From IMG/VR virus record IMGVR_UViG_3300036832_000775, positions 8,949 to 72,948 of that record: a DNA stretch of 64,000 nucleotides. The stretch is one strand, 5' to 3'. The DNA is from a virus. Of the stretch, positions 11,537 to 46,039 are shown one piece after another. Under the pieces are notes generated by a model. It saw only the letters and a list, made by a program, of their open reading frames with translations. It searched no databases and was not told the DNA's origin. Position numbers and translations under genes: made by a program. The number at the start of each line of letters is the position of its first letter. The first letter of the stretch is position 1.

Positions 11537-14500
11537 TCACTGCTTAACCGGGCTGCCGTCATAGTTGAACGCCTTGCCCGTCGTCTTGTTTGTCCAAACT
11601 CCAGTCTGATTGTCGTAGGTGTATTTCCCGCTAGGCAGCCCGGGCGGCCGGACGCCCGAGCGAGCTTTCCGCAGAGAGACGGCATCGTCGATCTTGTTGT
11701 CCTTGACGAACTGATCGTCGTAGTCGCCCAGGCTGAGCGTAGTCGGGCGCTGGCCCTCCTTGGCGTGTCGCCACTTCATGTAGCCCTGGCCGTATTTGTC
11801 TTGGTAATCGAGGACGCCAAGCGCCTGCGCCAGGATGGCGCGGTTCGCCTCCGGCTCCAGCTCGGCGCTGGGCGAGGCCTGCTTGTAGGACGTGATCTCG
11901 GCGACGCGCGGGGTTCCCGGCATGGCCTTGACGGCGTCCATAATCATGGCCGTCGAGTTCTTGACGTACTCCTGGTAGCTGGAGGCCGTGCTCGGATCCA
12001 AGCCGACAGCGCCCGGGTTGAAGCCGGCCGCCTTGATGTAGCGGACGACATCAGCCTTCCAGTCTGCGCCAGCTCCCGGCTTGTAGCCGCTGTCGAGGAG
12101 CCCGATGAGCGCTTCCGCGCGCTGCGCGAGGACCGGCCGGCTGCGGAGCCCCTGGCGCACGTCGGCATCCTGTTCGGACGTCGCCTTGACGTCGGCCTCT
12201 GTCCCCGCCTCCAGGCCTTTCTTGATGCCGGCCGTCCTCGCTTCCCAGGACGCCTTCGCGGCCGCGATCATCGCGTTGCCTTGATCGATGTAGGAATTGC
12301 CGGCCGTGCCGCCGCCAATGTTCATGGCGCCGCCAAGCTTGATCCGCCGCATCCCCTCTATGTAATCCGGGTCGGTTGTGTAAGTGCCGATGTCGGCCCC
12401 AGACGTGCCGGCCCCGGTCCTATCCCCAGCTCCTCCCGCGACCTTCGTCGGCGGAGCTCCGCCCCCACCCGTTCCAGATTGCCCCGCGCCGCCCGTAGGA
12501 GCCCCGCTGGCGCCCGTTCCCCCTCCCAGGGTAGGAATAGACGGGAGAGGACCAACGCCCGTCCCTGAGCCTCCTGTGCTCCCTGTAGAGCCGTCGCCGA
12601 CGTCGATGCCCGCATCACGGAAGGCCGCGATCTGGATTTTGGCCATGCGCTGCGCGATCTGGGTCTGGATGACCTTGAAATCGGCGTCCGCGCCATGCTC
12701 GCGCGCCTCGGCCGACAGATTGGCGATCTGCGCCTGATTGTAGTTCCAGTCCTTCTCCAGGCCCTGCATCTGGCCGAGGTACTTGTTCCCGGCCGCGAAG
12801 CCCTCGCCCATCTGTGTGCCGAGCCAGGGCGAGCGAGACGCCATCATCCCTGCGCCGACCGTCATCATGTAGCCGAACGGGTCGCGCTTCAGCTCATCGC
12901 CCAAGGTCGGAGGATGGCTCGGCTGCCCGCCGCCAGGAGGAATAGCAAACCCGCCGCCGTAGCCTTCCGTAGTGGCCACGGCAGGCTGCGCGCCAGCGCT
13001 TGGGACATCGGCGCCCCCGCCCGCGACCGAGACCGGCGAGGCCTTGCCAGAGCTCAGATAGGCCTGGGCGTACTTGTCGCCCTTCCACGGCGCGAGATTG
13101 ACCCCCTTGCCATGGCTATACATCTGGTCGATCGCGAACTTGCCGACGCCCTGCCATTGGTTCGGGTCAGTCGGATCGTAGCCCGCCTTGCGCGCCTGAT
13201 CCCCGAGCGCGCCAGGATGGATGTTCATCTGAAAATCGCCGAACGAGAACGGCTTGCCTCCCTCGACATCGACGGTCGATCCGCCGACGCCAGGAGCGTA
13301 CAGCCCCTCGGCCTTCGCGACGCCGAGCGCGATGTTTGGATCGGCGCCGGGATAGGTCTTGGTGATGTAATCGCGATACCAGGCGGCTCGCTGCGCAGGA
13401 GTCGTCGCTCTCCGATCAGACGGGACGCCGCCGCCTCCGCCTCCGCCGCCGCCTCCGCCTCCGCCTCCGCCTCCGCCCCCTCCGCTCGGAGCTGGGGCCG
13501 GCGCGGGCGCGGGCGCGGCCCCCGCAAACGGGTCTAACGCCTCTTCGATCGCCGCGTCGCCGCCCTCTTGAAAGTTACCGCGCAGGGAGCCAAGCCCTAC
13601 GCCACCTCCAGTCGCGAAACCTGTATCAAGGTTGAAAGTGTCGTCAGGGAGAGCTGCGAAATCTCCCGACAGATCAGCGCCGCTGACGATATCGCTCGCC
13701 CCGCCGCCTCCGACGTCCCCGGCGCCTCCATCCGATCCCGTCGGCGTCGTCTGCGCCCCGCTCCGGTCCTTGAAGCCCGTCAGGACGGCGCCGGCCTGCT
13801 TCATCAGATCGCCAGGACTCCCCGGCTGAGCGCCGCTCTGGGGCTCTGGCGCTTTAGGCGCCTGGGCCTGCGGCGGACCTGGCCCCAGTCTGCCGCTGCT
13901 GCCGGACGAGGCCTCGATCGCCGCCAGGAACGGATCGATCGAACCGCCCCCCTCCGCAAAGCCCATACGGCCGCCGCCGCCGAACAGATCGCCGAACCCG
14001 CTCGCGGCCTTCGAGGTCGCGAAGGATCCGAGGCCTTCGCCCTGTGAGGTCTGGCCGGACATGCCGAAGCCCTGCGGCGTATAGCCGCCAGTGTTCTCGA
14101 GAGGCGAGGAGCCCATGACGCCGCCGCCGCCCTGGAAGTTAACCGGCCCACCAGAAGCCCGAACGGGAGCGCCGAGATAATCCTCACGCGGCGGGACCCA
14201 GCTCCCGTAATCGGTGTTCGGCGTCGGCCAGGAGCCATGGTTGCCAACGATGTCGGCGTAGTTGCTGAGATTGACGCGGCCTGGCCCGCCGGCTGGGTGA
14301 GCTCCTCTAGTCCGCGCGATATGCCGCGCCGCAGCAATCGCTGGGTGAACAGGCGCTTGAGCTCGAGCGTTCGGGCTGACCCCCGCGGCGACCGCGTCGC
14401 CAGGAACGTAGGTTGAGCCGCGCGCATTGCCGGTCGTTGGCACGAAGTGGCCGGCGGTGATCGGCGGCCCGCCCATGAGGCTCGTGACGTCGCCGCGATA

Positions 14501-45804: not shown

Positions 45805-46039
45805 GACGCGCCGGTCTCCCCATCGATGGTCTCTTCGCCGCGCCGCCGATCGCCAGCGGCTTCGCGTGTCGCTCCTTACGCGACATCTTGCCGCGTTTCA
45901 CGCCAAGCTTAGTCGGTTGGTTCGTTCCGGGGCGAAGCTCTCCGGCCTTTTGGAGAGTAGACGTTGCGACAGCCCACGGATTGACGTCGGGGCTCGATTT
46001 TTTGATCGCTTTAACCGCCTTGTCCAAGATCGCGGGCAT
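45797..46039 (-). CDS. Small basic protein
   Basis: WAVATSTLQKAG...TKLGVKRG; LAIGG. Confidence 0.7.
   Translation of the reverse strand: MPAILDKAVKAIKKSSPDVNPWAVATSTLQKAGELRPGTNQPTKLGVKRGKMSRKERHAKPLAIGGAAKRPSMGRPARHG

Follow-up and report, generated by a model that had tools for sequence, protein, structure and literature searches.

A Gly-Gly seam motif at module borders of late proteins in a podophage-like virus and of tape-measure proteins

We studied a stretch of viral DNA of 64,000 bases (in the following, the window), i.e., bases 8949-72948 of one 72,948-base virus record (IMG/VR record IMGVR_UViG_3300036832_000775; CheckV completeness 93%; ~64% G+C), and a peptide motif that recurs in its late proteins. 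The motif consists of a bulky residue, Ala or Gln, any residue, Gly and Gly, and it is a seam or delimiter that is genuine, under selection, found widely and linked to the borders of modules. It is found in six late proteins, namely in the tail of the portal and in five proteins that we name by their lengths of 1343, 377, 127, 245 and 2189 amino acids (aa). By analogy with the tape-measure protein pb2 of phage T5, the seam may be a proteolytic maturation site that is cut between the bulky residue and Ala, a reading to which we give an even chance. It is favoured because the T5 pb2 cut falls at the first bond of its only R-A-x-G-G. The late genes lie on the minus strand, at ~9.4 to 46 kb of the window, and all window positions given below refer to features on this strand.

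Enrichment and form of the motif

Enrichment was computed on a crude call of 91 genes from the whole 72,948-base genome, filtered by the G+C content of third codon positions (GC3). The strict form RA.GG (the dot stands for any residue) is observed 16 times, compared to expected counts of 1.59 for a per-protein shuffle, 1.55 when shuffling within 20-residue blocks and 1.43 within 10-residue blocks. None of 300 shuffles reaches 16 in any of the three schemes, the respective maxima being 7, 5 and 6. All 16 copies are within the six late proteins, with none in the other 85 called genes. Respective anagram controls (AR.GG, GG.AR and RAG.G) are found 2 times each versus ~1.5 expected. An origin by chance or composition is thus ruled out by the three kinds of shuffle, the anagram controls and the conservation reported below. 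Furthermore, different copies use different codons for Arg, Ala and Gly, which rules out a repeat at the DNA level. Since the codons vary among the copies, selection acts on the protein.

A first-pass annotation of the window had reported the motif, suggested a check with the broader pattern [RFYKLM][AQ].GG and described an 8-residue doublet spacing. Every motif instance it listed is present in the protein it named; its pattern yields 36 matches versus ~10 expected (shuffle maximum 18), and 9 doublets are observed versus 0.03 expected. It had also stated that capsid, scaffold and terminase are free of the motif. We found none in the terminase, none in the scaffold candidate (374 aa) and none in the capsid protein (304 aa), whose gene was lost to the GC3 filter and was checked separately. 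Outside the six proteins, there are single matches of the broad pattern in a 267-aa adaptor (FAVGG) and in a 407-aa protein (LAIGG).

Locally, the consensus extends to R-x-G-[R/F/Y/H]-[A/Q]-x-G-G-x-[V/I/T]. That is, among 28 copies, 16 have Arg 3 places upstream, 11 have Gly immediately upstream and 18 show Val, Ile or Thr 2 places past the Gly-Gly. In most window copies, Arg or Lys comes next after the motif.

Motif positions in the six proteins and their relatives

To place the motif in an evolutionary context, we use 27 related IMG/VR loci identified by portal search (59-85% identity). The portal itself (936 aa, phrog_1216; 42428-45238) carries RAAGG in its C-terminal tail (residues 895-899; 42542..42556), where it separates a long Q/E/H-rich C-terminal extension from a 37-residue C-terminal mini-domain (42431-42541). 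The latter reads T-P-Y-G ... A-P-D-G-E-F-Y-V-Q-H-P ... R-I-R-R and is conserved in all 14 aligned tails. RA[STRA]GG is kept in 27/27 related loci, with S, R, T or A at the free position, and locus L018 has a 50-residue insertion in its portal tail with a motif copy on each side. The extension ahead of the seam (portal residues ~670-894; 42557-43230) is ~225 residues long, shows abundant Q, E, H and M as well as recurring H-E...M-G units and probably forms a long inner barrel.

Directly downstream of the portal gene, the 1343-aa multi-domain protein (38234-42265) combines a SleB-like Hydrolase_2 domain (42.6 bits) and DUF7178 (102.1 bits), both above cut-off, with matches below the cut-off of 27 bits to LPD23 (24.5 bits) and DUF6782 (22.2 bits) and an HExxH domain. 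Its motifs fall between Hydrolase_2 (residues 96-220), the HExxH region (385-530) and the C-terminal part. The doublet RAAGG-RID-YQDGG (residues 238-250; 41516..41554) is located right behind Hydrolase_2, while a motif-helix-motif module, RAAGGSV ... LRRRL ... HGFQAGG (residues 631-661; 40283..40375), with RAAGGSV at 631 and FQAGG at 657, follows past the HExxH domain. In relatives, the hydrolase domain is followed either by an 8-spaced doublet or by a 31-residue motif-helix-motif module, which is the one found behind the HExxH region of the window's protein. Because relatives show Y-A-G-G-G ... F-A-D-G-G at the orthologous doublet site, Arg and aromatic residues are interchangeable at the first motif position.

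The relatives of the 1343-aa protein swap domains, and the borders of these swaps meet the motif. When aligned to locus L026, residues 5-242 pair with 4-237 and residues 632-1340 with 235-835. Since the matches break at 242/632, residues 243-631 constitute an insertion exactly between two motif copies. The breakpoint at 632 is repeated versus loci L017, L007 and L004. At its N-terminus, the protein has a leader (residues 5-43; 42137..42253) with a tandem D-Y-D-V-x-P-V ... [N/D]-P-F repeat, which is common to proteins of L006, L004 and L027 that are wholly different downstream. Being shared in this way, the leader is a more suitable candidate than the seam motif for a signal that serves packaging or portal binding.

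The 377-aa protein (36818-37951) is basic (isoelectric point, pI, 10.5) and has no family assigned. It bears a motif array with four 8-spaced doublets (residues 61-246; 37214..37771), i.e., FATGG at 61, RAAGG 77/RSLGG 85, RAKGG 124/RANGG 132, RAKGG 159/RWRGG 167 and QAAGG 234/RARGG 242, and a C-proximal RASGG-RI (residues 343-349; 36911..36925) with RASGG at 343. The R-A-x-G-G-R-I of the latter is invariant in 12/12 aligned sequences. Homologues from 15 loci all keep at least 2 strict RAxGG; within their alignments, R-A-x-G-G-R-[IV] is fixed and x is variable, and whole motif modules are gained or lost. The AlphaFold2 model has a mean predicted local distance difference test (pLDDT) value of 47.9; 266/377 residues are below 50, and all motifs are in such stretches. 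Together with the RAEGG of the 245-aa protein, which is placed in a loop with pLDDT below 50, this supports the disordered linkers proposed by the first-pass annotation. Searching GenBank phages (tblastn) with the 377-aa protein and with the motif-helix-motif module provided no match.

Also basic (pI 10.8), the 127-aa protein (30808-31191, downstream of the 407-aa gene) contains five motifs at residues 10, 49, 58, 72 and 93 (30901..31164), and its homologues in L015, L026, L013, G001, G004 and G005 keep motifs. The 245-aa protein (18979-19716) has a single RAEGG (residues 50-54; 19555..19569), located between a variable N-terminal leader and a conserved core.

Like the 1343-aa protein, the 2189-aa protein (11537-18106) is acidic (pI 5.3), and over its first 368 residues it matches a 'DNA ejection protein' family. 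Among its relatives, the motif-bearing islands belong to those parts that stay conserved amid divergent Gly/Pro-rich sequence. HFASGG (residue 380; 16955..16969) comes directly past a Peptidase_S74-like domain and is kept in 4/4 aligned homologues, while the doublet HANGG-RAG-FQGGG (residues 712-724; 15935..15973) is part of a stretch that is absent from the four. FQRGG (residue 840; 15575..15589) is inside a strongly conserved island. At EWTGG-RIG-RADGG (residues 1110-1122; 14741..14779), relatives show a triple 8-residue repeat, and a doublet of this kind is also found in the polyvalent proteins of L018 and L001. Further copies are RASGG-PVN-FQGGG (residues 1316-1328; 14123..14161), with a conserved FQGGGGV.GSSP island, FAEGG (residue 1383; 13946-13960) and FATGG ... 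FQEGG (residues 1497-1516; 13559..13618), the latter again a conserved island amid divergent Gly/Pro-rich sequence.

We observed two further features of this protein. Its Peptidase_S74 domain (residues 306-345; 17072-17191; 23.6 bits, cut-off 22), an intramolecular, self-cleaving chaperone domain, is internal rather than terminal, and the matching PHROG family is only ~390 residues long. Based on these two observations, the first ~305 residues may be released from the other ~1880. Moreover, it shows a run of ~20 glycines (residues ~1541-1560; 13427-13486), where relatives have mixed Gly/Ala/Pro.

Within five near-complete relatives, most motif matches are in the same set of orthologues, and each genome has 1 to 5 further single matches of the broad pattern in other proteins. 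The respective counts are lower bounds, because the crude gene caller missed orthologues (377-aa homologues and one 245-aa homologue). More distantly, the polyvalent proteins behind the portal of MW202675 contain five copies, with one located eight residues ahead of the C-terminus. Copies are also present in DSL-LC04 and in the Pelagibacter phage HTVC027P of 35% G+C (K-A-D-G-G-R-I-G-Y), while Caulobacter phage RW has almost none.

Cargo fusions, tape measures and the nature of the seam

The AlphaFold2 model of the 245-aa core shows two units (residues 83-118 and 190-240; 18997..19470), each a hairpin with two helices and each preceded by a Gly-Gly in a low-confidence loop. Both Gly-Gly, including that of RAEGG, are invariant in 35 aligned family members, and the core has many invariant polar residues, namely R79, D81, Y92, N106, E199, H219 and D223. 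A profile of the family identifies 4636 clusters (50% identity) at E≤0.001, of which 1056 are at E≤1e-30. For many members, the core terminates a longer protein, with the match beginning at profile positions 36-41, i.e., just ahead of the motif (42-46). We fetched 25 of 150 listed fused members and scanned 10 of these 25 with Pfam. The 25 sequences contain 46 [RK]A.GG versus 1.9 expected (maximum 7). In the 10 scanned members, we identified three ART-PolyVal domains, one Phage_lysozyme domain and one sub-threshold GNAT domain. The five cargo domains are free of motifs. Flanking copies are present on either side of four of them and only downstream of the lysozyme, which is N-terminal. Because the motifs flank these cargo domains without entering them, we describe the grammar of these proteins as leader, repeated pairs of seam and module, and core. 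Within the family, the bare form is represented by the 245-aa protein of the window. The family's conserved leaders read M-P-x-x-F-N-P-x-P-S-S-I-R-I-x-R-M-L or, in fused members, M-P-L-K-S-G-x-S .... In the fused relatives P0116, P0171, P0189 and P0210, we also observed a small repeated module between seams, which reads G-G-L-Y-A-N-I-H-A-K-Q-E-R-I ... H-M-R-x-P-G ... A-P-T-A, with no Pfam match reported.

For the core, Foldseek finds no PDB match at E≤0.001, and a PDB profile search returns a single match with E 1.2. The Atlas provides only unnamed viral clusters and, as a lead only, a crAss cargo family at 0.82. In the libraries searched, the family has neither a Pfam model nor a solved relative. 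When the second unit is compared to the unit of the lambda tape measure using hhalign, a probability of 49.9% (E 1.7e-4) is obtained over only 23 columns. While short, this match is suggestive of a resemblance between the 245-aa core and the C-terminal unit of tape measures.

Concerning lambda gpH, the first-pass annotation had pointed to such motifs near its processed C-terminus. In accordance, FATGG (733) and YATGG (778) flank a conserved unit with V-H-R-G-E-F-V-F, and the passages on gpH in PMC12617516 place its cut in a Gly-rich stretch close to the C-terminus with products of ~78 and ~14 kDa. Pfam models end ahead of this motif-unit-motif stretch, which is described as unresolved in the parts of cryo-electron microscopy papers covered here. 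The lambda unit matches tape measures in 1029 phage records, and the motif-unit-motif module is found in 7/7 tape measures examined, including those of phages of Xanthomonas, Acinetobacter, Pseudomonas and Microbacterium. The seam belongs to the module grammar of the siphophage tape-measure C-terminal module, i.e., motif, H-x-x-E-[F/Y/V]-V unit, motif. In the window, such a unit (H-x-x-E-[FYV]-V or G-E-F-V, ~10-30 residues after the motif) is found twice in the 245-aa protein and loosely in the portal tail (P-D-G-E-F-Y-V). Behind the motif copies of the 377-, 127-, 1343- and 2189-aa proteins, no H-x-x-E-[FYV]-V unit is present.

The position of a tape-measure cut is known for T5. According to the pb2 passages of PMC10038345, pb2 is cleaved 'after R1127', as identified by mass spectrometry (LC-ESI-TOF-MS), between a hydrophobic stretch and a zinc-carboxypeptidase-like motif. 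R1127 is the first residue of the sole RA.GG in the 1219-residue protein (V-P-R/A-E-G-G-M-M-Y, the slash marking the cut), and 1219-1127 = 92 agrees with the '92-residue pb2C' named in PMC12617516. We estimate the chance of such a coincidence of cut and motif at ~1 to 5 in 1218. The T5 RAEGG aligns with the lambda FATGG, with Gly-Gly, His, Glu and Val being invariant. For a lambda gpH cut between F733 and A734, we computed masses of 79.8 and 12.5 kDa, to be compared with the quoted values. A cleavage at residue 1066 of the JBD30 tape measure is given in the respective part of PMC11445458 as the authors' prediction and is not used as support.

Who would cut? In agreement with the first-pass annotation, which had recognised no canonical prohead protease, the ten Pfam families scanned (Prok-JAB, JAB, S78, ClpP, S49, S77, C39, C48, C5 and MPTase-PolyVal) are without any match at E≤1 in this genome of 93% completeness; the cysteine and JAB proteases among them were covered by the accessions PF02902, PF00770, PF03412, PF14464 and PF01398. 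Prohead, ClpP, S49, T4-type, C39, Ulp1, adenain and MPTase-PolyVal proteases are therefore rejected as candidates. Lambda gpK has a JAB domain; a JAB/deubiquitinase-type cutting in analogy to gpK is rejected as well, as no JAB was found in the genome. The 374-, 193- and 201-aa proteins were considered as hidden proteases, and PDB profile searches found nothing at E≤0.1 for any of them. The zincin peptidase embedded in the 1343-aa protein is rejected as a conserved partner of the motif, since most polyvalent proteins of relatives are without HExxH. What is left as protease candidates is the 245-aa core or unit itself, or a host enzyme.

It is most likely that the seam-bearing proteins are kept in the head and ejected by the podophage, and that the portal tail, which bears a seam too, points inward. 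If the seam is a processing site, the modules would be loaded as one chain via the N-terminal leader, the chain would be cut at each seam at the bond that joins the bulky residue to Ala, following T5 pb2 (R1127/A-E-G-G), and the modules would be separated within the particle or on ejection. For this phage, we infer the cutting, the position of the cut and the cutting enzyme. The first-pass annotation had proposed polyprotein processing, which gains from the domain borders, the recombination and insertion breakpoints, the delimited cargo and the T5 cut within RAEGG; a cut past the Gly-Gly does not agree with T5, where it lies before Ala. Several observations weigh against a processing site. Beside the empty protease scan, the HExxH domain scores below Pfam cut-offs and is missing from 5/5 near-complete relatives that keep the motif (the window itself being the sole positive control). 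For the 245-aa core, neither fold nor sequence matches any solved peptidase, and His86 of its first unit is not invariant. The mass of gpH* fits a cut near residue 710 (77.7 and 14.6 kDa) equally well. The precedent with a mapped cut is one site in a distant siphophage. Finally, cutting all seams of the 377-aa protein would release 8-residue peptides, which is odd, and a P1 residue (the one ahead of the cut) that ranges over Arg, Phe, Tyr and His is unusual for a protease.

Some of these points favour an uncut structural joint, which we consider possible though rather doubtful. Here, the Gly-Gly would form a tight beta-turn or hairpin, with two copies closing a 'clasp' around nothing, a helix, a unit or an enzyme domain; the joints would be flexible, insertion-tolerant hinges that aid unfolding and threading through the portal channel, and the T5 cut would be incidental to an exposed linker. 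Such a joint fits with motif pairs that flank inserts of every size, with the hydrophobic residue two places past the Gly-Gly in the extended consensus and with the flexible low-pLDDT surroundings, and it needs neither a protease nor an explanation for tiny 377-aa peptides. On the other hand, AlphaFold2 predicts no strands at the motifs (weak evidence given the low confidence), a mere hinge does not need an invariant bulky residue and Ala across such evolutionary distance, and the T5 cut is exactly at the first bond of the motif. The capsid-targeting code that the first-pass annotation had offered as its second reading is not supported: we think it unlikely that the motif is a docking tag, i.e., a short linear ligand for scaffold, portal, capsid interior or the 245-aa units that would recruit or chain cargo in the prohead. 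Its restriction to the portal tail and to proteins that are probably internal or ejected, its multivalency in the 377-aa protein, its conservation amid disorder as known from short linear motifs and the joint presence of motif and unit not only in the 245-aa protein but also in the portal tail and in tape measures are in accordance with docking. Still, tape measures with the same module never enter the capsid, copies are found at every internal joint instead of one end, the conserved N-terminal cargo leaders are better suited to targeting, and the known signal of phage P1 is N-terminal in the part of PMC9024508 that describes it. Given a module shared with tape measures, copies that are repeated and internal, and leaders available for the role, targeting is the weaker of the two readings.

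Two further explanations relate to particular proteins of the block. The R-A-x-G-G-R repeats of the 377- and 127-aa proteins could resemble RGG or AT-hook motifs and bind packaged DNA, as their pI values, the Arg at -3, 0 and +5 from the motif start and their predicted or likely disorder would allow. We regard this as very improbable, given that the motif comes with Phe, Tyr, His and acidic neighbours in the 1343- and 2189-aa proteins and tape measures and that its invariant part is Gly-Gly and Ala, not the charges. Weakest of all, and in our view scarcely credible, is a mimic of the GroES mobile loop that would engage the host chaperonin. A GroES-like gene is part of the same block and its loop reads A-T-R-T-A-[G/S]-G-L-[E/Q]-I, and in T5 hydrophobic residues come right past the Gly-Gly. 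Zweig and Cummings (1973) reportedly described T5 tail protein cleavage with 'selective host involvement'. Their paper is cited among those on chaperonin-dependent phage assembly in the respective passage of PMC5649160. The register differs, though: the loop has Ala directly ahead of the Gly-Gly and hydrophobic residues at +1 and +3, not +2, and the Arg or Lys behind most window copies is no hydrophobic triplet.

Returning to proteolytic maturation, an extension concerning the enzyme seems improbable to us but is specific. The tape-measure-type unit, i.e., the 245-aa core, which terminates thousands of phage polyvalent proteins and is found at the end of tape measures, may be a new peptidase family. 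It would cleave the chain it belongs to and, in trans, all [bulky]/A-x-G-G seams, freeing a variable enzyme set from one packaged chain. As a pseudo-substrate, the seam, which is often A-[D/E]-G-G, would then imitate the L-Ala-D-Glu with which the peptidoglycan stem peptide begins, such that a single active site would serve both for maturing the cargo and for opening the cell wall on ejection. Muralytic activity is reported for T5 pb2C, as quoted in the pb2 passages of PMC10038345.

Late gene block and comparison with known systems

The late genes are ordered as portal, 1343-aa, 377-aa, GroES-like, 374-aa, 193/201-aa, 304-aa, 407-aa, 127-aa, SU10-type adaptors, fibres, 745-aa structural, 245-aa, GNAT-like, 2189-aa and 707-aa. 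With SU10-type adaptors and fibres and without tail tube or tape measure, this gene set is podophage-like. By portal, an uncultured phage comes nearest among GenBank phages (44% identity), along with podophages of Pelagibacter, Roseobacter, cyanobacteria and Caulobacter (25-31%). The Q/E/R-rich 374-aa protein is the probable scaffold, and the 304-aa protein, which is 93-97% identical in relatives, is taken to be the major capsid protein. The GroES-like co-chaperonin gene (35725-36132) is within the head-assembly block, a position that is kept in MW202675, Caulobacter RW, HTVC027P and DSL-LC04. The order common to these phages is portal, cargo, GroES, scaffold, two small proteins, capsid. In the window, the two small proteins between scaffold and capsid (193 and 201 aa; 33370-34667) are 72-86% identical in relatives and without Pfam or PDB sequence match; the 201-aa protein has invariant His14 and Cys70. 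Right behind the capsid gene, a Gly/Ala/Thr-rich 407-aa protein (31203-32426) is only ~45% conserved. Given that it is far less conserved than the capsid protein, it may serve in decoration or as a head fibre.

Neither the proteolytic maturation of tape measures nor the idea that polyvalent proteins are processed is new. Literature searches for an AxGG or GG motif combined with phage or tape measure returned no paper that describes the motif; the 'GG motif' of PMC2248197 was rejected, since the term is used there for HNH nucleases. A seam peptide shared by podophage ejection proteins, portal tail, polyvalent cargo and tape measures is thus not described in the papers returned. If the seam is a cutting site, it provides a sequence rule that predicts which pieces of mosaic internal, ejection and tape-measure proteins become separate enzymes within the host. 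A shared maturation step would link podophage ejection proteins with siphophage tape measures, and the position and the agent of the cuts in lambda gpH and T5 pb2 would become directly testable. As the core family is large and has neither Pfam model nor solved relative, a defined function would annotate many phage genes. Furthermore, the seam looks like a place of module exchange, which is useful for engineering phage-delivered proteins in the laboratory.

The 1343-aa protein resembles the phage-type polyvalent proteins of Iyer, Burroughs, Anand, de Souza and Aravind (2017; PMC5512222), which are predicted there to be processed into units: it combines several unrelated domains, its late gene adjoins that of the portal, and domains are shuffled among its relatives. 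The sections on the phage type assign processing to embedded zincin peptidases and name no cleavage or seam motif, whereas here the zincin-like domain is dispensable and the seam peptide is conserved. The fused 245-aa relatives, with their ART-PolyVal, lysozyme and GNAT domains, are polyvalent-like.

Papain-like, adenain-type and deubiquitinase-type viral proteases use L-x-G-G-like sites and cut past the Gly-Gly. The seam is alike in that a small or hydrophobic residue, a free residue and Gly-Gly are found at polyprotein joints and in that basic internal proteins carry such sites. It differs since the T5 precedent is cut four residues earlier and no C48, C5, C39 or JAB domain is found in this genome. 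T4 capsid targeting sequences are single and N-terminal. As in T4 internal-protein targeting and for the P1 DarB signal, head-carried injected proteins are concerned. A T4-type signal is removed by the prohead protease; the seam motif is internal and multi-copy, and no S78, S77, S49 or ClpP-type prohead protease is found in the genome. Likewise, the P1 DarB signal is single and N-terminal in the description of PMC9024508, while the seam motif is internal, repeated and also present in tail proteins.

There is a close likeness to T5 pb2 and lambda gpH, where [R/F]-A-x-G-G is followed by an H-x-x-E-[F/V]-V or G-E-F-V unit; here, such a unit comes with the 245-aa protein and, loosely, with the portal tail. 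In both, a long extended or ejected part is split from a C-terminal module (pb2 to pb2* and pb2C, gpH to gpH* and gpHC), and tape-measure proteins leave the particle ahead of the DNA. In contrast to T5, the lambda gpH site is not mapped to the residue. Unlike in these tape measures, the motif of our podophage is multi-copy over six proteins, with most copies lacking an adjacent unit, and has its unit as a free-standing protein of 245 aa.

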